A DNA stretch of 64,000 nucleotides from Candidatus Iainarchaeum sp. (GCA_043809245.1 JAZDDZ010000047.1:32001-96000); one strand, 5' to 3'. Shown: positions 3,610-15,488, counted from the first letter of the stretch. A program made the numbers and translations. Notes: a model not told the origin generated them from the letters alone.

Positions 3610-4815
3610 TCAAATTTCTTGGCTTATGTAAAAGATTGGCCTGAATTTTATGTTGTTTTTTTCGGCATTCAATTTTTCCGACAGAATGAGTGCTTTTTTT
3701 GGCTTGTATTTTTCCGTGAAGCTTTGGAATGATTTTGATGCGATTGGCTTGTTTAGGCTGGATTTGATTTCAATTGGGATTATTTTTCCGTTTTTTTCCA
3801 GGACAAAGTCCACTTCGGCTTTTGATTTGGCACGCCAGTATTTCAGCTCGAATTGCTTTTTCACCAATTCTGTTGCCGCAAAGTTTTCGTATAATGCCCC
3901 TTTGTCGGCCCTGTCCTTGGCTGGCTGAAAGTTTTTAATGACCGCGTTCCTGAAGCCGTTGTCGTAAAAAAAGATTTTCGGTGCCTTTACCAGCTCTGTC
4001 CTTTTGTTTGAATAGAACGGCTGGCTTCTCTGGCAGATAAATGTTTTTTCAAGTATGTTCAGGTTTTTCAGCAAATCCTTGTAGTTCAAGGAAGTAATGC
4101 CTGACAACTCGTTATAGTTCAGAATGCCGCCTGTCTGCAGTGCGAGCGCGTGAATCAGTTTGCTGAGCTTGAAGTCCTCTGGAATGTTTAGGATTTCCTT
4201 TATTTCCTTGAGAAAATATGTGTTGTAAATGTTGCGCAAAACAAGCTCTTTTTCCTCCGAATTTTTGCTTAAAACCACCCTTGGATAGCCGCCGTACACG
4301 CAGAATTCATTAAAAAGCGGGATGATTTTCCCAATGACCGGTTCGCTCAGCCTCCCCTTAACGTAAATTTTCCCGAATAATTCGGGTTCCCTGAAGTTCA
4401 AAAATTCCTCGAAAGAGAATGGATATAGGTTAAATACAAGGATTCTGCCTACAAGATACTTTATGCCGTGAATGGACAACCCGCTTGCCGAAGAGCCCGA
4501 AACAAGGATTTTGGTTTCATGGTTATCGTAAATGAATTTCAGGTTTTTCCCGCCTTCCTTGGAGTACTGAAACTCGTCAATGAACAAATACTTGTAGGGC
4601 TTGACGTGCAGTTCAACAAACGACTTAATATCCCCGTTGAATAACTCTAAAGTCTCCCTGTCCTCGAAATCCAGGAAATGCGCTTCCTTTAATCCCGCAA
4701 AAATATGCTTTAACAGCGTGGTTTTGCCGCTCTGCCTCGGGCCAGTAACCGCAATTATCTCCCGCTTGCCCAGATAACGAAAAATCTCCCCCTCCAAAAA
4801 TCTATCTATATACAT
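3610..4815 (-). CDS. AAA_14 ATPase with DUF4143 and C-terminal PD-(D/E)xK-like domain
   Basis: GPRQSGKTT Walker A, FIDEFQ, GGYP, PKIFFYDNG, EVDFV...PIEIK. Confidence 0.9.
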   Translation of the reverse strand: MYIDRFLEGEIFRYLGKREIIAVTGPRQSGKTTLLKHIFAGLKEAHFLDFEDRETLELFNGDIKSFVELHVKPYKYLFIDEFQYSKEGGKNLKFIYDNHETKILVSGSSASGLSIHGIKYLVGRILVFNLYPFSFEEFLNFREPELFGKIYVKGRLSEPVIGKIIPLFNEFCVYGGYPRVVLSKNSEEKELVLRNIYNTYFLKEIKEILNIPEDFKLSKLIHALALQTGGILNYNELSGITSLNYKDLLKNLNILEKTFICQRSQPFYSNKRTELVKAPKIFFYDNGFRNAVIKNFQPAKDRADKGALYENFAATELVKKQFELKYWRAKSKAEVDFVLEKNGKIIPIEIKSSLNKPIASKSFQSFTEKYKPKKALILSEKLNAEKNNIKFRPIFYISQEI

Positions 4816-5022
4816 TTTATCCCTGCTAAAATTTACACAATATAAATAATAGCAGGCATATATTTAAAGCTTTCTGCGCTTGTTTTCCTTGCTTTTTTTG
4901 CCTTTCAGCCGCTTTCTCCCCCCTTGCCTCTTGTTTTTCCGCGATTTTTTTCCAAGAAAGGTTTTTATATTAGGTCATCCTTTATCTATTACTTTAATTG
5001 ATTTGTTTTAAGGTGTTGTTTT

Positions 5023-5778
5023 TTGGTTGAAAAGGTTAAGACTGGCATTCAGGGCTTGGATAAGGCTTTGGAGGGCGGAATCCCCAAGCGAAACATTGTC
5101 TTGGTTTCCGGCGGAGCCGGAACAGGTAAAAGCACTTTATCCATGCAATACCTGGTTAATGGCGCGAAACTGTTCGGGGATCGAGGCCTTTACATCTCCA
5201 CTGAGCAGCGCCGAGAAGAATTGATTAAAGCGGGCATGAATTTTGGCTGGAACATTGAGGAATTAGAGCAAAAAAACCTGCTTAAGATAAAGTTTTTTGA
5301 CGTGGTCGGCGGCGACAACTGGCTGCAGAAGATTTACGACCTCTATACTGCATTCCAACCCAAACGCATTGTAGTTGACTCTTTAACGACTTTCACTGAC
5401 GCCATGCTTGTCGCTGGAATGGGCGAAGACACTGCGTTCTCCATGGTGCAAGTAGCTGAAACCGTTTCACCTGTGCCACGCACCGAGAAGATTATAGCGA
5501 AAACAACGCTGTACCATTTGATGAATAAGCTGAGATTGTTTGATTCAACTGTTATACTTACATCGGAGCTGGACGAGGGAACACAAAGTCTAAGTGCAGA
5601 TGGCGTAAGCGAGTTTATTGCGGATGGAGTAATAATATTACATTATTTGGGCGTAGGCGCGGTCGACTTTAGAAGCCTGCTCGTAAGAAAGATGAGATAT
5701 ACCAACCACAACAAGCAAACTTTGCTATACGATATTTCGCAGAAAGGAATAGAAATTAAAGAAGAACAAAATGTATAA
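5023..5778 (+). CDS. KaiC/RecA-superfamily ATPase (single domain)
   Basis: TGIQGLD..L.GGIP, GGAGTGKS, IVVDS, EFIADGVI, VRKMR. Confidence 0.9.
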   Translation: MVEKVKTGIQGLDKALEGGIPKRNIVLVSGGAGTGKSTLSMQYLVNGAKLFGDRGLYISTEQRREELIKAGMNFGWNIEELEQKNLLKIKFFDVVGGDNWLQKIYDLYTAFQPKRIVVDSLTTFTDAMLVAGMGEDTAFSMVQVAETVSPVPRTEKIIAKTTLYHLMNKLRLFDSTVILTSELDEGTQSLSADGVSEFIADGVIILHYLGVGAVDFRSLLVRKMRYTNHNKQTLLYDISQKGIEIKEEQNV

Positions 5779-5783
5779 CATTT

Positions 5784-6461
5784 ATGCTTAAACACATTTT
5801 AGTTATTCCTGATGGCAATAGACGATACGCAAAAGAACGTAACTGTTCACTTCAGGAAATATACGACTATGCAATAATAGAACTTACAACCAAACTATTA
5901 AAATTTTTCCTAATTGAGAAAAACATCCCAGAAGTTACTATCTACGGTATTTCTTTAAACAATATCCTAAAAAGAAAAGCCGAAGAACTTGAACCAATTT
6001 TTAAGCCACAGATAAAAGCCTATAAAAAATGGTTAACTGATAATGATTTTAAGAATGCCCAAGTCGCATTTAGGTTTTTTGGGGAGATTGAAAAACTTCC
6101 TAAAAATTACAAAAAAATTATTAAAGAATTGGAAGCCGCAGCCCCAAAAAAACCAAAAAAAATGTGCAATCTTTTGGTTGGCTATGACGCAGAAGCAGAG
6201 ATAGTTAATGCTATAAATTGTGCACAAAAAAATAAAGGCAGAATATCCCAAGAAAAATTGCGTGATTTCTTACAACTAAAAACGCCAATTGATGTTGTTT
6301 TTCGCTCAGGTTATGAAAAGAGACTATCGGGAGCACCTTTAATTCAATCTAGCCAAGCAGAGCTGATATTTGCTGACTACTATTACCCCGAATTAAATAA
6401 AAAAAGAATGGAAGGAATAATAGAAGAATACAATAATAGAAAAAGGAGGCATGGCCAATGA
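5784..6461 (+). CDS. cis-prenyltransferase (UppS-like), divergent
   Basis: HILVIPDGNRRYA, DVVFRSGYEKRLSG, AELIF motifs. Confidence 0.85.
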   Translation: MLKHILVIPDGNRRYAKERNCSLQEIYDYAIIELTTKLLKFFLIEKNIPEVTIYGISLNNILKRKAEELEPIFKPQIKAYKKWLTDNDFKNAQVAFRFFGEIEKLPKNYKKIIKELEAAAPKKPKKMCNLLVGYDAEAEIVNAINCAQKNKGRISQEKLRDFLQLKTPIDVVFRSGYEKRLSGAPLIQSSQAELIFADYYYPELNKKRMEGIIEEYNNRKRRHGQ

Positions 6462-7021
6462 TAGACTTATTCCAGAAATTACTAATGATGCAACAAATAA
6501 AGTTCGAAGAAGGCAATATTAGGTTATTCGGTCGAAGAATGGTTCTTTCTCCTGCAGAGATGCCAATCGCGATGACCGACTATATGTTAAATCATCCACA
6601 AGCGATTCCCGAAATATATGAAAAAATTAGGGTTAATATTGAGACTGGTTGGGCAGAAGCAGTACATGATCTTTATAAATTTGGAAGGCGAAATTACATT
6701 GACACTATGAAAGACATAGGAACGTTAAGTGGGTGGGGAAATCATCAATTTCTAACCTATGATGCAGAAAAATTAGAAGGTCTTGTCAGAACACCTAATT
6801 CTCCTGTGGGTGAATATTATAAAAATAAAGTAAAAGAGCCAGTAGACCATATTTTTAGGGGGTTAGCTGCCGGTGTTGGAAGCGCAATACTAAAAAAAGA
6901 GATGGATTGGATAGAGACAAAATGTATTGGAAAAGGAGATCCTTATTGTGAAATGCTTTTTAAGTTGCGAGAAAATATTACTTCTGAAGAAAGAAAAAAA
7001 TATATAAATCAACTTCCTTAA
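6458..7021 (+). CDS. V4R (4-vinyl reductase) ligand-binding domain protein
   Basis: GWG, DHIFRGLAAG, E.KC.GKGD.YC C-terminal motif. Confidence 0.85.
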   Translation: MIDLFQKLLMMQQIKFEEGNIRLFGRRMVLSPAEMPIAMTDYMLNHPQAIPEIYEKIRVNIETGWAEAVHDLYKFGRRNYIDTMKDIGTLSGWGNHQFLTYDAEKLEGLVRTPNSPVGEYYKNKVKEPVDHIFRGLAAGVGSAILKKEMDWIETKCIGKGDPYCEMLFKLRENITSEERKKYINQLP

Positions 7022-7032
7022 CGGTAGTTATT

Positions 7033-7887
7033 ATGAGATTAAGTTTTAGTGATTTGCTAAGCATTTTTGTACCCCATTATATATTGTCTGCCGTTATAAC
7101 GACTTTTTTTGTTTTTTTCCTATCCTCAGGAAGCGTAGTTGAGCAAAATTTGATTTTTGGCATTATTTTATATGCCACTTGCATTGTTGCATTTAACGCA
7201 TATAACATGGTTTTTGATGAGGACATCGACAGCATAAATAAGCCGCTTAGACCAATCCCATCCAAAAAAATTTCGAAGGGTAAAATATTATCATTGAGTA
7301 TATCCCTCTTTTTATTGAGTATTTTTTTGGCAATATTGGTGAACTGGCAGTTGTCGATTTTATTCTTCGCGTTTTTTATTGAAGCTATAATTTATTCAAC
7401 ACCCCCTCTTCGTTTAAGGAAAATTTTATTTTTCCATAACCTAAACGCCACTTTAATTTTTGGGCTAATCCCTATTTTTATAAGCCGAATTGTGACTGGG
7501 CTTATATTGCCGCTGGAATTCTCGTTCTATCTCATTAGTTTAATTTTTGTTACAGCAACTGTTAAAGACTACGAAGATATTAGTGGCGAAAAGAAATTTA
7601 AAATAAAAACAATCCCTAATTATTTTGGAATTGATATTTCAAATAAATTTATTTTATTTGGCTATTTCTTTCTGCACTTCTTTATGGCGCTTTTTTTTAT
7701 TTTTATTAAATTTAGCAGTGGTCTTTTATTTGCGGCTATTTGCGGCATTATATTTTCGTTAACAATTTATTCAAAGTTAGTAAACTTTGAGAATTCTACC
7801 GAAACGAAAATCCACTCTCCGCTAGTTAATTTTGTTTTATTTTTTACCTATTTAGTTCAGCTAATTTTTATAATAGTACCCCGATAA
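7033..7887 (+). CDS. UbiA-family intramembrane prenyltransferase
   Basis: N...D.DID.INKP.RPIPS, YSTPPLRL, KDYEDI.GE; multiple hydrophobic helices. Confidence 0.9.
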   Translation: MRLSFSDLLSIFVPHYILSAVITTFFVFFLSSGSVVEQNLIFGIILYATCIVAFNAYNMVFDEDIDSINKPLRPIPSKKISKGKILSLSISLFLLSIFLAILVNWQLSILFFAFFIEAIIYSTPPLRLRKILFFHNLNATLIFGLIPIFISRIVTGLILPLEFSFYLISLIFVTATVKDYEDISGEKKFKIKTIPNYFGIDISNKFILFGYFFLHFFMALFFIFIKFSSGLLFAAICGIIFSLTIYSKLVNFENSTETKIHSPLVNFVLFFTYLVQLIFIIVPR

Positions 7888-7891
7888 ATCG

Positions 7892-8965
7892 CTAATAAAA
7901 CAATTTTTTCAAGCTATATTTTTTTCGCCAATTGTCTATTTCAAGGCGTATTTTTAACTTAGATACTAGCTGGTCTAAAGTTATGGGAATTTTGTTGTAT
8001 TCACTGACATCAATTTTATCTGAAAAAATTAGTTTCTCGAAATCCTCATCCGCCATATGCTCGTATATTATCCGTCTCTTTAACGCTGCCAACAACTCTG
8101 ATTCGATAGCACCTTTCCAAATTGTATCATAATTTGTCTTGTTAATAATAGATTGAGCTGCTGCGATTGCACTTTCAAGGCAATAATTGACTCCAAATCC
8201 CCTTGCTGCATCTACAAAACCCGCTGCTGATCCAATAAACTTAATTTTATTTATTTCCGCAGTCTTTGGAACATTAGCATAAGTAAAACCGCCGAATTTG
8301 TCTGCAGAACTACTATTTTCTATGATTTTGGATATTATCATATTCTCCTTCAAAAACCTTTCAAAGAGCAAAGGCAAGTTTGCATTTAAGTTAAAACTTA
8401 CCTCGCCAATGCTGGCTTCATGCTTTCCGTAAGGTATTAACCCTAAATATCCGTGGGGCGCAAATTCATTATTCAGAAAAAATAAAATTGTATCTTTTTG
8501 AACGGTCACATCCTTAAAATGAACACCGTAATACGCAATATTTCTGAAAATAGAACTTGAAGAAACAATCTCTGCATTTTTCAAGTTTTTATTTTCTTTA
8601 AATTGAAATTTAACCCCTTCATCTTCTGCCTGTTCAAAAAGCTGGGAATCAAAAGAAGTCAATGCCTCTCCGCGCCGAAATATGTAGAACAGTGGTTCTT
8701 TTGAATTAATTTCCATTTTCCTGCCTGACGGCGAATATTTTGTTATTTTATATATTGGTTTAGTATAGTTTAAATCCAAACCCTCTTTTCTAAATTTCTG
8801 GAGCTGTCCATAATCCGGACCATAATTCCTTATAGCTTGAATATTTTCGCCTGTGTTGAGCCCTATTGCGCGGTTCTTTTCAAAGACAGAGGCCCTTTCG
8901 CCGCCCTTTGCCAAGATTATTGCTGCTGAAAGCCCCGCAATGCCCGCCCCAATTATTTTTTGCAT
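7892..8965 (-). CDS. FAD-dependent oxidoreductase, geranylgeranyl reductase-like
   Basis: IIGAGIAGL..A Rossmann motif, FAP.GY, G.AAGFVD...GFG. Confidence 0.75.
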   Translation of the reverse strand: MQKIIGAGIAGLSAAIILAKGGERASVFEKNRAIGLNTGENIQAIRNYGPDYGQLQKFRKEGLDLNYTKPIYKITKYSPSGRKMEINSKEPLFYIFRRGEALTSFDSQLFEQAEDEGVKFQFKENKNLKNAEIVSSSSIFRNIAYYGVHFKDVTVQKDTILFFLNNEFAPHGYLGLIPYGKHEASIGEVSFNLNANLPLLFERFLKENMIISKIIENSSSADKFGGFTYANVPKTAEINKIKFIGSAAGFVDAARGFGVNYCLESAIAAAQSIINKTNYDTIWKGAIESELLAALKRRIIYEHMADEDFEKLIFSDKIDVSEYNKIPITLDQLVSKLKIRLEIDNWRKKYSLKKLFY

Positions 8966-9067
8966 GTATAGTAATAAGCGCTTTTCATTTTTAAACTTTA
9001 GTAGATTATTATTTTAACTGAAAACCACCAAAAATGGATAAAAAGCTTATTTAACGCTAAAGCCGAC

Positions 9068-9910
9068 TTATTTTCTTCGTTTATTCTCCTTATACACCTT
9101 TTCAGCCTCTTCCCTCAACTTATCCGCCAGCGACGCGTTTTTCGTGATTAGCACGTTTATTTCCGTCTTTTTCGCGCATAATTCGAACAATTTTGGAAGA
9201 TCCACTTCTTTTTGTGCTTTGGTTTCTTCGCACATTTTTTCAAATTCTTGGTAGTATTTTGACTCAAAGTACACTTGGCAGATAAAATCCCCCTGTACAA
9301 ATGTGTCAATTGTGGTGGAAAAGTTAACGCCTGTTAGGTTCTTTTTGCCCATTCCCGTGAGGTATGACGCAAAATATCTGTCCAAAAAGGTATTTTCTTT
9401 TGCAAAACCGTAATGCATATGATCTGTGAAAACTTTTTTCAAATTCTCATGCTCTGTTTCGCTTATGCCTGTTATCGGATAATGGTGTTTCCAGAAACAA
9501 ATGCAATCCTTGTTTTTTTCATTCGGGAATTTTAGAAAATACTCGTTTATCAGGAATTTTCCTAGTTCAATCATGGAATTGAACGTGAGGTGAATTGATC
9601 CGCTGAAATTTTCCGGATCCATTTTGTTGTTTGCGTAAACCTCACTTAAGGTATTGCTGAACTGTCTCACTTTTGAAATCCAATCCTTGTTCAATGACAA
9701 GCCTTTGCCGTTCTTTGTTATAATGCCTTCTTCCTGAAGCAGCGTTATAATCTTATGTGCCGCCTGGTAAGACATTTCACAGCTATACTCCCTTTGCAGC
9801 GTCTTGTATATCTCGTTTGGAGTTAAAGGCCATTTTCTGGACAGAATTGAAACAATTTTGTCTTTAGTGGAAGTGGAGTTCAGTTCGGGGATAGTGATGC
9901 TTATCGTCAT
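9068..9910 (-). CDS. wHTH protein of WPL..SYQA.HK family with C-terminal domain (paralog 4)
   Basis: STKDKIVSILSRKWPLT..EI...SYQAAHK. Confidence 0.75.
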   Translation of the reverse strand: MTISITIPELNSTSTKDKIVSILSRKWPLTPNEIYKTLQREYSCEMSYQAAHKIITLLQEEGIITKNGKGLSLNKDWISKVRQFSNTLSEVYANNKMDPENFSGSIHLTFNSMIELGKFLINEYFLKFPNEKNKDCICFWKHHYPITGISETEHENLKKVFTDHMHYGFAKENTFLDRYFASYLTGMGKKNLTGVNFSTTIDTFVQGDFICQVYFESKYYQEFEKMCEETKAQKEVDLPKLFELCAKKTEINVLITKNASLADKLREEAEKVYKENKRRK

Positions 9911-10326
9911 TTTCTCTCGCCTCCGTAAGCAGCAATTAACTGGTTTCTTATGAAGTCAGCCATTTCTTTGTCTTTTTCGAAGGTAACTGTCATGTGAATT
10001 TTTCTTGATAGCGTCTTGTTTCTGGCGAAATCCATGAAAAGGCTGCCTGCAAGGTTTTTCGAGAAAACCTCCATTTTTTTAGCCCACTCGCGGTTCAAAA
10101 AAATCTTTTTGTCATCGGATTTAAGCAGAATTCCTTCGCCAAGCATTTGGTTCACGATTTTGTGAAGCGCCTGATAGGACAGCTGCCTTTCACCGTTTTC
10201 CTTCAAAAAAGAATGAATTTCGTTAACCGAAGCGCCTTTGTCAACGGAAATGCAGGACAAAATAAACGAACGAGTGGAAGAGCCAGCAATCAGATTGCCG
10301 TTGAATGAGGTATTTGGCAGATTCAT
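9907..10326 (-). CDS. wHTH protein of same family, short form (paralog 3)
   Basis: SVNEIH...LSYQALHK...EGIL...LNREW. Confidence 0.7.
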   Translation of the reverse strand: MNLPNTSFNGNLIAGSSTRSFILSCISVDKGASVNEIHSFLKENGERQLSYQALHKIVNQMLGEGILLKSDDKKIFLNREWAKKMEVFSKNLAGSLFMDFARNKTLSRKIHMTVTFEKDKEMADFIRNQLIAAYGGERK

Positions 10327-11174
10327 TTTCCCACCCCCTCAAAGTATTTTCTTGCTTGTGCGTGGATTTGTTCTGCGGCGATTGGGTTGCGGTTAATTGT
10401 TAAAATGACTTTTGTTTTAAGCGCGCAGACGCTTTTGTATAATTCAATTATGTCCATTTCTTCGATTTTTTCAATTCCGTGAAGGGAGCCATGCAATGCT
10501 TCTTTTAGGTTGTCGCCGAAATAAGCAGTAACTATGCTGTCGCCTGGAACGATTATGTCACAATGTTTTTGTACGGGAATGCCCAGTTTTGGCTTCCATC
10601 CAATTTTTTGATAATAGCCTGCAATCCATTGGTCTGCTTTTTCAGTGCTTGAGCAAATCATGTGGTGATCATATTTTTCCCCCATGCGCAAAAGCTTTTC
10701 AAGGTATTTTTTCCCTAAAATCATTGGAAACCAGTTCCAATAATGATTTAAAAAAGAGGATCCAATACGCGTCTTATTTGAATCAAAGAAATCATTATCC
10801 AATCCGTCGATGACGAATTCGTACATTGCCCAAAGCGTGCTGAATTCCACTTGGGTCGTGGTTAAATCGATTTTTTGCCCAAAGCCTGAGCCGGAATAGC
10901 TGTTTTGGAGTTTTTCCGAGTAATCCTGCATTTTGTTGATCCATTCCTTGGAGATTTTCAGCTGCGAATTGATTTCTTCTAGAATGCCCGCGTCAAGCAG
11001 TTCTTTGGCTGTTTTGTGGACCGCTTGATAGGACACGTCAAGGGAATAGTTTTTCTTTAAAGCCGAATGAATTTCTTTAACCGATAAGGGCCATTGGCTG
11101 GCAAGCACTTCAATTATAAGTTCCTTGGATGACTTTGAACGCGAATTAAGGTTGGGAAGAAAAAGGTCAGTCAT
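10323..11174 (-). CDS. wHTH protein of same family (paralog 2)
   Basis: WPLSVKEIH...SYQAVHK. Confidence 0.75.
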   Translation of the reverse strand: MTDLFLPNLNSRSKSSKELIIEVLASQWPLSVKEIHSALKKNYSLDVSYQAVHKTAKELLDAGILEEINSQLKISKEWINKMQDYSEKLQNSYSGSGFGQKIDLTTTQVEFSTLWAMYEFVIDGLDNDFFDSNKTRIGSSFLNHYWNWFPMILGKKYLEKLLRMGEKYDHHMICSSTEKADQWIAGYYQKIGWKPKLGIPVQKHCDIIVPGDSIVTAYFGDNLKEALHGSLHGIEKIEEMDIIELYKSVCALKTKVILTINRNPIAAEQIHAQARKYFEGVGK

Positions 11175-12034
11175 TGCTTTCGCCCCCCTTCAAAGTGTTT
11201 TTGGACGTTTTCTTTTATTTGTTTTGCGAGTGCGGGGTTTTTGGCTATGATTATGGGGATTTGGGTTTTTTTGAGGAAGATGTTGTCGAATAAGTGTTTG
11301 ACGTCCAGGTCTTGGATGTTTTTGGTTTTGGAGAAAAAGCCGTTGATTTCTTTCATGAGGCTTTTCGGGTAAAAGGCTTGAAGCACTAAGTCGCCCATTG
11401 CAATGATGTCGTTGTCTCCGTAGTTGACTCCGCTTTTGCTGGAAAAGCCTTGTTTGTTCCAGAATTCAGAGCACCATTTGTCAATGACATTGCTGCCCTT
11501 CACTATGCTGTAGATTTTGGCTGTTTTGGGAATAAGCTTTAATTTTTCGTATTCTTTCATTGAAAGGAAAAGCGGCAGCCAGTAGTGCTGCCACTGCCAG
11601 GCAATTGCTTCCCCGTCCCCGGGATAATTTGTGACAAAAAAATCCAAAATGAACTTGTCTGCTTCATGCATTGATTCAAAGGAAAACGAGGACTCGCTAA
11701 AAGAAGGCGAAGCCTTTTTATCAAAGTAAGCCGAGTGAATGGAGTGGCTTGCGTTTTTGAGCTCTTCAATCCACTTCCTGTTCAGCGAATAATTTTTTTC
11801 GCTTTTTTCAAGCACTCCATCCAATACAAGCTGTGAAATGATTTTATGCGTTGCCTGGTAAGAAGAAGAAAAACCATTGCCCTTTGCCAAAGCGTTATGG
11901 ATTTTGCGCGCTGAAAGAGGCCATTCATTGCTCAGCAAGGAAATAACCTTATCCCTTGTAGAGGAAGCCTTTCCATTCAGTTGTGGAACAATAAAACCCG
12001 ACGCCAAAAAAAACCACACCTGAAATATATACAT
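11171..12034 (-). CDS. wHTH protein of same family (paralog 1); true start may be TTG near 12007
   Basis: STRDKVISLLSNEWPLS..KIH...SYQATHK. Confidence 0.75.
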   Translation of the reverse strand: MYIFQVWFFLASGFIVPQLNGKASSTRDKVISLLSNEWPLSARKIHNALAKGNGFSSSYQATHKIISQLVLDGVLEKSEKNYSLNRKWIEELKNASHSIHSAYFDKKASPSFSESSFSFESMHEADKFILDFFVTNYPGDGEAIAWQWQHYWLPLFLSMKEYEKLKLIPKTAKIYSIVKGSNVIDKWCSEFWNKQGFSSKSGVNYGDNDIIAMGDLVLQAFYPKSLMKEINGFFSKTKNIQDLDVKHLFDNIFLKKTQIPIIIAKNPALAKQIKENVQKHFEGGRKQ

Positions 12035-12178: not shown

Positions 12179-12487
12179 TTATTTTGCCAGGTTTTTCAGC
12201 TCTTCGTTTAGGTCTTCAATTGAATACTGTGATTTGAAGCCTTTTTTAACCAGGTATTGCTCTAGTTCCCAGACCGTTGAATTTGACAGCTCCGCTGCCA
12301 TGCTTATTGTTATTTTTCCCGCCATATAGTTTTCTGCTGCCTTTTTTTTGACATAATCGCCGTAACCTTCCTCTAACAGCAGGCGGATTATCGTTGACCT
12401 GTCAAAGTGCTCTGCTTTGCTTAGCCGGTCTATTTTTTCCAAAAGCCCTTTGTCAAGCCTTATCCCTATTGCCTTTGCTTTCTCCAT
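12179..12487 (-). CDS. RHH + UPF0175 antitoxin
   Basis: IGIRLD...DRSTIIR and Y..GKITI..AAEL motifs. Confidence 0.8.
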   Translation of the reverse strand: MEKAKAIGIRLDKGLLEKIDRLSKAEHFDRSTIIRLLLEEGYGDYVKKKAAENYMAGKITISMAAELSNSTVWELEQYLVKKGFKSQYSIEDLNEELKNLAK

Positions 12488-12989
12488 TTTTTTCCACCTC
12501 CAGCAGTATTTTGTCAAGCACTTGGCTGCCGAACCAGCCAATCTTCCTCAGCTTGTTCAGCGCCTCAGCGGTTTTGCCCGAATCAATTGCCTTGACCTTG
12601 AAAAGCGCCAGGATAATTGAAGGGGTTCCAATCAAGTTAAGCCCCAAAACCGCCTTTTTGCTTCTTACATTGTCGTCATCCGAAACCAATAAGCCGGCAT
12701 TCTCCTGCCAGTAAAGCGCAACTGCCTCCGCCTCGCCCCCGAAAATGTTGAAGTTATTCGCATTTTTAACTAGCTGTTTTTTTGACACCCCTTTAACCTT
12801 AATCCATTTCTCTTTAACCAGGCGCTCAATCAGAAAAGAGTCGGCATAGCCCTTTTCTTTTCCCGTACTCACTGCTTCGGCAAAAACAAGTTCAGGGATA
12901 AGTACCTCCTTGAAATGGCGGCAGCTCTTCTCAAGCAGGGAAATCTTCGCCAAATGAATCAAAACCATTGCGTCATTTACAACAAGCAC
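12453..12989 (-). CDS. PIN-domain toxin (DUF3368-like)
   Basis: VVNDA..LI.L, GEAEAVAL, LVSDD, GT..I; GTG start at 12989 inferred. Confidence 0.8.
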   Translation of the reverse strand: MLVVNDAMVLIHLAKISLLEKSCRHFKEVLIPELVFAEAVSTGKEKGYADSFLIERLVKEKWIKVKGVSKKQLVKNANNFNIFGGEAEAVALYWQENAGLLVSDDDNVRSKKAVLGLNLIGTPSIILALFKVKAIDSGKTAEALNKLRKIGWFGSQVLDKILLEVEKNGESKGNRDKA

Positions 12990-13319
12990 AGTCTCTGTAA
13001 TACAATGTGCACAATGTATATATATTCTTTTCGTTTGGTGTTTAAAGGATAGGCGCCAACCTTTGCCTATAGCTTTTGGGAACCGCATGCGCGATTCTTT
13101 CTTTTTGAAGAACAATTTTGGTTTAAATCTTTCTTTTAAAAGAAAGATATGCTTGCAAGGCATAATGCCTGCCGTGTATTCAAATTCAATGCTGCTTTTG
13201 GGCTTTTTTATCTGTGACTCTAAAAGCTCTTTTTCTTTCAATGACTGCAATAAATTATTTATAAAGGTTTCAATAAACGTTGAAACCTATAAAAACAGGC
13301 GCAAATCCCTCCAGCTAAA

Positions 13320-14405: not shown

Positions 14406-15095
14406 TCACTTAAACCCTATTATTATTGAAGAGTTGAGGTTTCTGTACGCCACTTCGGTTTTAAAGCCCGCGGCGTTCAGGAATTTGAGGTTATTGTTGA
14501 GTGAGGCGTATTGGTGGTGCTTGCCGTCAATTGAGAGTATTTTGTCCCTGAATTCTTTTCCGTTTTCTTTTTCCATGTGGCCAGCCCATTTTGAATGGAG
14601 GTACTCATTCAATTCTTTTGAATCGCTTGCCATTACATCCGCTAAAATGAATGCCCCGCCCTGTTTTAATGAATCGTAAACTTTTTTGTAAGCCTTTTGC
14701 TTGTCTGCATCGGAGAGGTGATGGTAAACAATGGAGCTTACCGCCAAATCAAACTCGTTTTTCCTGTCAAGGTTAATCACGTCATCGCAGACAGCCTTGA
14801 AGTCAAATCCCTTGAATCTTTTGTTTGCGCATTCCGCCATTTTATCCGAAACATCAAATGCCAATACGCTTGCCTTTGGCTTGGCTTCCAGGGCTGCCTT
14901 GCTGGTGTTCCCTGTTCCAGCCCCCAAATCCAATATTCTCGGCGACTCTGAATGCCCGCAGAACAGGTTAACCATTTCCCTGATTGTTGAAACCATTTCA
15001 GCATAGGATATAACGGTTCCATGCACGAATGACTCGTATTCTTCCACTCTTTTGTTGAAAAGTTCCTTTGTTTTTTCCTTGTTCTCATTAGCCAT
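14406..15095 (-). CDS. Class I SAM-dependent methyltransferase
   Basis: ILDLGAGTG, FDLAVSS..YHH, L..GG.FILAD. Confidence 0.9.
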   Translation of the reverse strand: MANENKEKTKELFNKRVEEYESFVHGTVISYAEMVSTIREMVNLFCGHSESPRILDLGAGTGNTSKAALEAKPKASVLAFDVSDKMAECANKRFKGFDFKAVCDDVINLDRKNEFDLAVSSIVYHHLSDADKQKAYKKVYDSLKQGGAFILADVMASDSKELNEYLHSKWAGHMEKENGKEFRDKILSIDGKHHQYASLNNNLKFLNAAGFKTEVAYRNLNSSIIIGFK

Positions 15096-15119: not shown

Positions 15120-15488
15120 TTAAAATTTTTTAGAACGTTCAAGCAATTGGTTTGCCGGTTCACCGCCATAGGCTTTTCTTGTTTCCCCGCTGAATTTGTC
15201 CAATCTTTCCAGCCACTCCGCGTCAAGCAGATAAAGCGACTGCTCTTTGCAAAGGATTCCCTCGCGCAAAAGTTTTCGCGCGGCCTTGTGGATGCCTTGA
15301 AAGCTCACGTTCACAGCATGCCTGCGGTTGATGCGGTAATGCATGTCCCTCAAAGACAAAGGCCATTCGCGCGCAAGAATCAACACAATCAAATCCGCAA
15401 CTGTTTTCTTTCCCGCGCTGACCTGCGGCAGTTTCAGCGTTGAATCAGCTGTTGCTCCGTTTAATAGTTCGCCGGAAAAACTCGCCAT
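15120..15488 (-). CDS. wHTH protein of WPL..S(F/Y)Q..HK family (paralog 5)
   Basis: LAREWPLSLRDMH...VSFQGIHK...EGIL...EW. Confidence 0.75.
   Translation of the reverse strand: MASFSGELLNGATADSTLKLPQVSAGKKTVADLIVLILAREWPLSLRDMHYRINRRHAVNVSFQGIHKAARKLLREGILCKEQSLYLLDAEWLERLDKFSGETRKAYGGEPANQLLERSKKF

Follow-up and report, generated by a model that had tools for sequence, protein, structure and literature searches.

Archaea have many KaiC-like ATPases and V4R domains, but to our knowledge an input or ligand is known for hardly any of them. The 2017 mBio survey by Makarova, Galperin and Koonin reportedly treats KaiC neighbourhoods broadly. In activators of the XylR/DmpR type a sensor domain controls an ATPase, BchG/ChlG, BchP/ChlP and BchJ act in (bacterio)chlorophyll synthesis, and the haloarchaeal bacterioruberin genes include LyeJ (UbiA), CrtD (CrtI family) and CruF (PF04240). 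Excerpts of the literature present KaiC-like ATPases as hubs of archaeal signal transduction (Makarova, Galperin and Koonin 2017, as cited in PMC5847659), MsvR as a DNA-binding and V4R regulator of oxidative-stress genes in methanogens (PMC3729527), and MM_0014 as a versatile archaeal cis-prenyltransferase, or cPT (PMC8131916). Here we describe a gene cluster in a 64,000-nucleotide stretch of Candidatus Iainarchaeum sp. (GCA_043809245.1, JAZDDZ010000047.1:32001-96000), hereafter the window, in which a KaiC-like ATPase and a V4R protein are encoded beside a diverged cPT, a UbiA-family prenyltransferase and a flavoprotein of the GGR superfamily. The window carries one of the two copies, in its genome, of an accessory module of the Iainarchaeota. 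We read this module, with a probability of about 50%, as an accessory pathway for a tailored isoprenoid that is monitored by a V4R-KaiC switch.

A KaiC-centred sensor module is known in kind; its dedication to isoprenoid enzymes appears to be new here. As in the hubs outlined in those excerpts, a single-domain KaiC-family ATPase lies beside a putative sensor domain and DNA-binding proteins, but in the window the ATPase is genetically tied to isoprenoid enzymes of the UbiA, cPT and GGR types. The entire 187-aa V4R protein superposes on the ligand-binding sensory domain of XylR, DmpR, PoxR and MopR. It stands alone, however, and does not have the XylR/DmpR-type architecture of sensor, AAA+ sigma-54 ATPase and helix-turn-helix; the ATPase is of the RecA/KaiC type, not AAA+ sigma-54, and the DNA-binding parts are separate TrmBL2-like genes. 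By analogy, the split module resembles XylR/DmpR logic executed with another ATPase and other DNA-binding parts. A V4R with a conserved cysteine pair is shared with MsvR, and a winged helix-turn-helix (wHTH) protein fused to V4R at a related locus (L047) offers an analog of it; the window V4R has no DNA-binding domain of its own, whereas the MsvR targets named in the excerpt are oxidative-stress genes and not isoprenoid enzymes.

The side-by-side arrangement of a UbiA-type prenyltransferase, a GGR-type reductase and a V4R protein recalls BchG-BchP-BchJ, but the scores are low (80 bits to ChlG vs 313 and 110-119 bits to BchP vs 343), a KaiC ATPase is added, and no tetrapyrrole genes were seen. 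Module UbiAs have CruF-like neighbours at five loci and a CrtI-like one in the second cluster of the window genome, as in LyeJ-CrtD-CruF; unlike the haloarchaeal set, neither PF00494 nor the CruF family PF04240 was found in the window genome (91.8% complete). As the excerpt describes MM_0014, the window cPT is likewise an extra archaeal cPT beside a glycosyl-carrier-lipid enzyme, with the cPT fold and catalytic residues. It differs from MM_0014 and housekeeping UppS in its separate, long-stem clade, in its profile scores (72 bits to MM_0014 vs 162 bits to the UPPS structure 3ugs) and in a loop insertion. The window wHTH proteins are predicted by modelling to share with TrmB/TrmBL2 a wHTH, a long helix and a PLD-like C-terminal domain, but they have no Pfam TrmB match and form tandem arrays of 2-6 beside KaiC-V4R modules. 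Our full-text literature search returned no paper linking KaiC or V4R to UbiA, cPT or GGR genes, with an earlier KaiC-V4R description possible in the 2017 hub survey; a paper on GGR multiplicity (PMC10821996) makes no mention of UbiA, KaiC, V4R or DPANN.

Gene content of the cluster

The listing of open reading frames and the Pfam/NCBIfam matches agree with the initial annotation, which had described five genes between 5023 and 8965 as a tight operon with a convergent FAD reductase. Its extent was drawn too short, since the unit runs on to four TrmBL2-like wHTH genes (9068-12034). The features are as follows.

4964-4971, plus strand: predicted TATA-like box TTTATATT upstream of the KaiC gene, read from the sequence
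5012-5015, plus strand: GGTG, 7 nt ahead of the TTG start of the KaiC gene, read from the sequence
5023-5778, plus strand: single-domain KaiC-like (RecA-superfamily) ATPase, 251 aa (PF06745, 177.9 bits)
5784-6461, plus strand: diverged cPT paralog, UppS-like, 225 aa (PF01255, 124.5 bits)
6458-7021, plus strand: stand-alone V4R protein, 187 aa (PF02830, 33.1 bits, cut-off 31)
7033-7887, plus strand: UbiA-family prenyltransferase of module type, not DGGGPS-type, 284 aa (PF01040, 110 bits)
7892-8965, minus strand, convergent: GGR-superfamily FAD flavoprotein, GGRl subclade, 357 aa (PF13450, 30.3 bits; GGR_cat 23.8 bits, below the cut-off of 27)
Upstream of the flavoprotein gene, minus strand: predicted TATA-like sequence TTTAAAAAT, a promoter-like sequence of its own
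9068-9910, minus strand: TrmBL2-like wHTH and PLD-fold protein, 280 aa, paralog 1 of 4 (AlphaFold2 (AF2) model and Foldseek)
9907-10326, minus strand: short paralog, wHTH part only, 139 aa (BLASTP to the three long paralogs, E 1e-12; profile 67.5 bits)
10323-11174, minus strand: TrmBL2-like paralog, 283 aa (BLASTP, profile match)
11171-12034, minus strand: TrmBL2-like paralog, 287 aa (BLASTP, profile match)

On the plus strand, 5 nt separate the KaiC gene from that for cPT, the cPT and V4R genes overlap by 4 nt, and 11 nt lie between the V4R and UbiA genes; the stop codons of the UbiA and flavoprotein genes converge with 4 nt between them.

Conservation of the modules across genomes

Neighbourhoods were annotated with purpose-built profiles, a gene being scored as present within 5 kb, and the phylum is the label Iainarchaeota (DPANN) on named records. 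When eight UbiA genes were chosen blind to context by their mid-range DGGGPS score, seven were found with KaiC and V4R: six in KaiC-V4R-UbiA(-reductase) clusters and one likewise on a 2.5-kb contig, the eighth having only a wHTH gene. A profile built from 12 module UbiAs (A6) gave 38 matches of at least 146 bits in 33/196 genomes of the order, with a threshold placed at a fuzzy gap above DGGGPS-type genes of <=143 bits; the phylum tally at E<=1e-42 was 34/215 genomes. Among 39 module-UbiA loci, KaiC was present at 35, V4R at 35, a wHTH gene at 23, a GGR-family reductase at 20 and cPT at 3, and V4R nearly always lay directly beside UbiA, often within <100 nt or overlapping it (35/39 loci). The gene combination also recurs beyond the sequences from which the profile was made: the 26 loci outside the profile set comprise 23 with KaiC, V4R and UbiA, one with KaiC and UbiA, and two with UbiA alone.

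The cPT paralog has a neighbourhood of its own. At 16 genome-derived cPT loci we found KaiC in 13, V4R in 10, wHTH in 7, a helical protein that we call s172 in 5, UbiA in 4, a GGR-family reductase in 4 and an HD hydrolase in 2; the three loci without KaiC are truncated, the contig ending 2-1740 bp from the gene on one or both sides. In a 17th, fragmentary locus (L053), KaiC lies immediately upstream. Of the 66 loci from the genome_contigs set, 8 were annotated, the rest being duplicates of loci already in the set or <=31% identical. Among 80 metagenome cPT loci, the 33 with >=32% identity were annotated, several of them duplicated across samples; KaiC was present in 23 of these 33, and the commonest order was KaiC-cPT-V4R-s172. 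In control neighbourhoods (±1.5 kb flank), V4R occurred at 0/10 DGGGPS-type UbiA loci and 0/10 housekeeping UppS loci, and KaiC at 0/10 and 1/10, respectively. The cPT and UbiA submodules are merged in three genome-derived loci, namely the window, G052 and G126, and at two more distant loci (L051 and L052) the UbiA gene overlaps the cPT start.

The conserved unit is therefore KaiC-V4R-UbiA with or without a GGR-family reductase, alongside a separate KaiC-cPT-V4R submodule, and the two are merged in the window. Because it recurs across the phylum while the controls are negative, the gene combination is far beyond chance. The link between KaiC, V4R and isoprenoid enzymes to which the initial annotation pointed is strongly conserved (35/39 loci each), but its five genes are not one conserved block.

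Isoprenoid enzymes of the module

The window cPT scores 94.5 bits against the UppS equivalog TIGR00055, below the cut-off of 109.55, and belongs to the PF01255 domain family by a wide score (Pfam cut-off 27). In 18 paralogs D10, G11, R13, R14, N60, R64, R174, R180, S182, E193 and R221 are invariant; these include the DGNRR, N..R, R..R.S, E and R.R residues that serve catalysis and diphosphate binding in E. coli UPPS. A one-residue insertion in the S..N...R loop is common to the paralogs. In a word-indexed search only 10 other proteins reached >=38% identity to the window cPT, and at E<=1e-35 the paralog was found in 10/196 genomes of the order, spread over 9 families including the window's own. 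The maximum-likelihood tree (67 rows, left from 78 hits after duplicates and rows of <190 or >300 aa were dropped) places the window cPT in a separate paralog clade with support of 100/99 and a long stem (0.75). This clade is nested in a 26-row clade (100/99) together with the order's own housekeeping UppS. The tree indicates that the cPT arose by duplication and divergence within the lineage. A bacterial origin, hinted at by the best PDB match, 3ugs, was rejected, since the tree joins the paralog clade to the order's UppS. Judged by their sequences, the paralogs form a putative new cis-prenyltransferase subfamily with intact catalytic motifs. One row labelled uncultured Methanosarcinales (L102:7962-8825) falls inside the paralog clade on a very long branch (2.14), its placement unsure; an artefact is possible, as is a connection to a methanogen group of extra cPTs.

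The best scores of the window UbiA against DGGGPS models are 69-81 bits, with cut-offs of 269-353 (NF009521, ~69 bits vs 296; NF009522, 56 bits vs 353), and the Protein Atlas returned only generic UbiA clusters for it. Residues N58, D66, R73, P74 and D182 are invariant, D62 and D179 occur in >=90% of rows, and both Asp-rich motifs are kept in module UbiAs. In a FastTree tree of 49 UbiAs, displayed without support values, the window protein groups with the module UbiAs, the window and second-cluster type standing apart from the DGGGPS type. These two are the only UbiA genes of the window genome, both of module type, and they give its best NF009521 scores (88 bits for the second-cluster protein, 68.5 bits for the window protein); a gene scoring 130-260 bits with this model is present in 33/40 sampled relatives. 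A DGGGPS-type UbiA went undetected although GGGPS is present; either the 92%-complete assembly lacks it or it has been replaced.

Canonical copies of the other enzymes lie elsewhere in the genome: UppS on contig C28 (TIGR00055, 191.7 bits, cut-off 109.55), a GGR adjoining it (207.9 bits) and a second GGR on contig C25 (258 bits). The genome also carries GGGPS and a polyprenyl synthase, and because of these two it appears able to make archaeal lipids. The sole PF00348 match is in two pieces ~1.4 kb apart within one 844-aa open frame (contig C8:30492-32657; loci L108 and L109), which suggests an intein or large insertion in a GGPP/FPP synthase. The window cPT, UbiA and GGR-like proteins all score far below equivalog cut-offs, and they are not the housekeeping copies, a possible housekeeping role of UbiA being the caveat. 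With canonical UppS and two canonical GGRs elsewhere, and the window enzymes sub-equivalog, the cluster is not the core lipid pathway. The initial annotation, which had set it apart from that pathway, is thus correct as regards UppS and GGR; the caveat attaches to UbiA.

The window flavoprotein belongs to the GGR superfamily, as first proposed, and falls below both TIGR02032 (73.1 bits vs 158.8) and NF041080 (36.3 bits vs 580); it is 39% identical to the paralog in the second cluster and 35% to that of L043. Module flavoproteins form two clades, FADb and GGRl, the window protein being in GGRl. FADb proteins score 143-148 bits to TIGR02032 and 212-228 bits to NF008519 and keep the Cys of canonical GGRs. 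Both canonical GGRs of the genome and 4/4 FADb proteins have this Cys, which follows the first FAD-binding motif and which we take to be catalytic in archaeal GGR structures; it is absent from 7/7 GGRl proteins including that of the window. In the GGRl clade GDAAG gives way to GSAAG, and the clade appears to be a new, Cys-less GGR-like subfamily.

KaiC-like ATPase, V4R protein and TrmBL2-like proteins

The KaiC-like ATPase is below all NCBIfam KaiC equivalog cut-offs; with 99.9 bits vs 546 for circadian KaiC (TIGR02655), it is a single-domain protein and not the double-domain clock protein. It is 53-66% identical to the KaiCs of four related modules, and G30, G33, T34 and K36 of Walker A (GxxGxGK) and D119 are invariant in 14 module KaiCs. 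V4R is the sole Pfam domain of the 187-aa protein, in which G92, G94, G139, E153, C156 and C164 are invariant across 14 V4R proteins. From end to end, its AF2 model (pLDDT 90) aligns with the domains by which PoxR, DmpR and MopR sense phenol; Foldseek gave E 1.5e-10 to PoxR 5frw, with a TM of 0.75-0.77 over ~190 columns. The next matches were TRAPP Bet3, one entry of which has bound palmitate, and MJ1460, and the V4R profile matches MJ1460 and MopR in the PDB. C156 and C164 form a C-x7-C pair inside the stretch aligned to the MopR/PoxR sensor domains. The model therefore favours a free-standing domain of the ligand-sensor kind, in line with the sensing role that the initial annotation gave to V4R. 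A complex prediction for KaiC and V4R scored 0.05, which is not evidence either way.

The four minus-strand wHTH genes are paralogs, 25-30% identical, and a Pfam scan of the four proteins found no family and no TrmB match. The AF2 model of the 280-aa protein (pLDDT 87.5) matches TrmBL2 5bpd with a Foldseek E of 1.9e-8 over 285 columns and, by VIA, with Z 9.6. Its domains are a wHTH (Z 10.8 to MecI) and a PLD/Nuc fold at residues 102-277 (Z 9.8 to Nuc), and the protein is 36% identical to a homolog in the module of G028. Homologs flank modules of other genomes in arrays of 1-6. The TrmBL2-like wHTH proteins constitute a large unnamed family, for which we count 634 cluster representatives at E<=1e-30, rising to 1870 at E<=1e-10. 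At L047 (10616-11536, minus strand) the PLD-like domain of a wHTH gene within the module is replaced by a V4R-like C-terminus that bears a C..C motif, so that the architecture resembles that of MsvR.

Second cluster and variable partners

The second copy of the module (contig C42:52681-59203; L120 4682-11204) encodes KaiC, V4R, a CrtI-like protein, UbiA, a GGR-like protein, an Lrp/AsnC regulator and a short wHTH protein. Its CrtI-like gene is split into frames of 225 aa and 188 aa by a frameshift in an A-run (L120 ~6622-6747), which may reflect misassembly, a pseudogene or slippage. Partners at related loci include CruF-like PF04240 proteins in 5, xylose-isomerase-like TIM barrels in 4 and an HD hydrolase in 2, and one related locus has FIST together with a weak terpene-synthase-like match.

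A C40 carotenoid (bacterioruberin-like) product, raised by the CruF and CrtI neighbours, was set aside: the phytoene/squalene synthase family PF00494 is missing in 4/5 carriers. A C40 carotenoid substrate is unlikely, to judge from the gene inventories, because PF00494 was found in only 1/5 carrier genomes and not in the window genome.

The s172 protein (~172-212 aa, helical) accompanies the cPT paralog wherever UbiA is absent. Residues H19, D20, D60 and H142 are invariant; it matches no Pfam family and is absent from the window genome.

L024:6219-6737, L034:8315-8869, L043:5805-6476, L047:8681-9319, L050:9223-9771 and 9 metagenome loci: s172 (alignment A7)

The idea that s172 is a cryptic HD hydrolase was dropped, as hhalign gave a probability of 0.8% against the HD proteins standing in for it at two loci.

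Interpretation and alternative explanations

Gene content, paralogy, kept adjacency, folds and the intact catalytic motifs of cPT, UbiA and KaiC are direct observations, and the proposed pathway is built on them. The cPT would make a dedicated polyprenyl diphosphate, and the UbiA would attach this product, or else a prenyl unit, to a hydrophobic, membrane-located acceptor. The flavoprotein may then alter double bonds of the chain. We infer a product and a ligand that would meet at V4R, which would bind the isoprenoid or hydrophobic substrate or product and gate the KaiC ATPase; the wiring between KaiC, V4R and regulators would be completed by feedback control, with KaiC targeting either the TrmBL2-like DNA-binding proteins or the enzymes. 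That V4R sensor, KaiC and TrmBL2-like arrays make up a split, ligand-gated KaiC switch for isoprenoid or lipid sensing, genetically tied to the makers, in Iainarchaeota and, by record labels, perhaps some Micrarchaeota, is a tentative proposal that we hold possible but doubtful. If true, it would amount to an archaeal lipid-sensing signal-transduction system, provide candidate natural V4R ligands and give an archaeal KaiC-like hub its first defined input. In dozens of genomes the module links KaiC and V4R to prenyl transfer, chain synthesis and double-bond modification, and hence suggests concrete candidate ligands; it is also a sign of isoprenoid metabolism beyond the core pathways in DPANN archaea with reduced genomes.

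The near-constant position of V4R directly beside UbiA (35/39 loci) is also what a purely biosynthetic module would show, in which V4R is a BchJ-like carrier or chaperone feeding UbiA, KaiC is an ATP-driven aid to loading, extraction or assembly, and no signalling takes place. UbiA and FADb match ChlG/BchG and BchP models about as well as DGGGPS and GGR models, the trio mirrors BchG-BchP-BchJ, with BchJ presumably in such a role, and the V4R relative Bet3 binds palmitate according to structure entry titles. We nevertheless regard this explanation as unlikely: the best structural matches of V4R are regulatory sensor domains, wHTH arrays stand at 23/39 loci with one wHTH fused to V4R, and the chlorophyll-family scores are all far below cut-offs. 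Distinctly less probable is a redox or oxidative-stress switch in which C156 and C164 sense redox as in MsvR, and KaiC with the TrmBL2-like proteins tunes isoprenoid modification, such as saturation or antioxidant isoprenoids. Nothing ties the module enzymes to redox, and the two cysteines lie within the MopR/PoxR-aligned stretch and may be structural, the corresponding residues of MopR/PoxR-type sensors being ones that we take to bind zinc. What speaks for such a switch is the invariance of the pair in 14 V4R proteins, the wHTH-V4R fusion in L047 and the finding, in an excerpt on MsvR, that its V4R cysteines C206, C232 and C240 affect redox-dependent DNA binding (PMC3729527).

The initial annotation had gone further and envisaged a self-contained module that makes and senses a diffusible prenylated signal, as in quorum or host sensing. 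Its non-core character and the conserved link to KaiC and V4R have held, and a synthase, a sensor-like protein and transcription-factor-like proteins are indeed encoded together, with the patchy distribution and atypical composition often seen in accessory traits. For quorum or host sensing there was no supporting result: none of the genes conserved at the loci encodes an exporter, a receptor or a secretion protein, and membrane-bound lipids are the UbiA products in all families that the window UbiA resembles. We judge a diffusible signal very unlikely. Marginally less credible still is ordinary membrane synthesis with the module UbiA serving as DGGGPS in the window genome. This would account for a genome that has GGGPS and polyprenyl synthase and only two UbiAs, both of module type. 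Against it stand the incompleteness of the assembly, the separate UbiA of 33/40 relatives (130-260 bits to NF009521), the second, DGGGPS-type match in most module carriers (for example G052, G016, G047, G035 and G004) and the housekeeping UppS and GGR elsewhere in the genome.

Several observations weigh against an isoprenoid pathway watched by a V4R-KaiC switch. Related genomes are not independent, so that the recurrence figures are counts and not statistics and overstate the number of independent events. The chain length made by the cPT is not readable from its sequence, the helix-3 region having no indels relative to the housekeeping copy, and saturation by the window GGR-like protein is not assured, the Cys being absent. 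BchJ-type biosynthetic proteins and the redox regulator MsvR have the V4R fold as well, so that ligand sensing is not the only way to read it. V4R is also encoded at a distance from isoprenoid enzymes: the genome's third V4R gene, on contig C8, adjoins neither KaiC nor UbiA. A trio of V4R, a ~100-aa protein with a weak Penicillinase_R-like wHTH and a PHP-domain phosphoesterase recurs a few kb from several modules (L037:17026-19001; L124:11275-13242; L125:10602-12534), and V4R is therefore used outside isoprenoid contexts too. Finally, the module UbiA might do the DGGGPS job, because no DGGGPS-type UbiA was found in the 91.8%-complete window genome.

Genomic setting

The window genome comprises 1.48 Mb in 55 contigs; its 40 nearest relatives all fall in the same order and have genomes of 0.5-1.5 Mb. 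Positions 5500-9500 have 34.2% GC against 44.4% for the genome (standard deviation of 4-kb windows, 2.5%), and only 0.3% of its 1297 4-kb windows are as GC-low. The AT-richness described at the outset is therefore real, though the KaiC gene itself is of normal composition (44.7% GC), unlike the genes for cPT (32.6%), V4R (34.8%), UbiA (30.5%) and the GGR-like protein (35.8%), which lie at 30-36%. The cluster on C42 likewise ranks with the windows of lowest GC in the genome. Genes flanking the module together form a variable defence/toxin-antitoxin neighbourhood.

101-883: AbiEii toxin gene
953-1971: HEPN and nucleotidyltransferase pair
3610-4815: DUF4143/AAA_14 ATPase (PADLOC PDC-S01, 296 bits)
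12453-13250: PDC-S70-like gene (PADLOC)

For nine module proteins of the window PADLOC gave no meaningful defence-system match. KaiC matched mad8, the GGR-like protein C3a186 and the 283-aa wHTH protein GajA only marginally, over short stretches and with 16.5-20.4 bits; clear matches came from the flanking PDC-S01 and PDC-S70 genes alone. Transposase genes lie next to two related loci. Because of this defence/toxin-antitoxin setting, the transposases at related loci, the low GC and the patchy distribution, the module would fit an accessory, horizontally mobile trait.

Two further genes lie downstream of the wHTH array.

14406-15095, minus strand: UbiE/COQ5-like S-adenosylmethionine (SAM) methyltransferase, 229 aa, directly downstream of the next gene (Pfam)
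15120-15488, minus strand: further short wHTH homolog, 122 aa, module membership uncertain (profile 87 bits)

A similar methyltransferase is encoded beside a module UbiA at L126.

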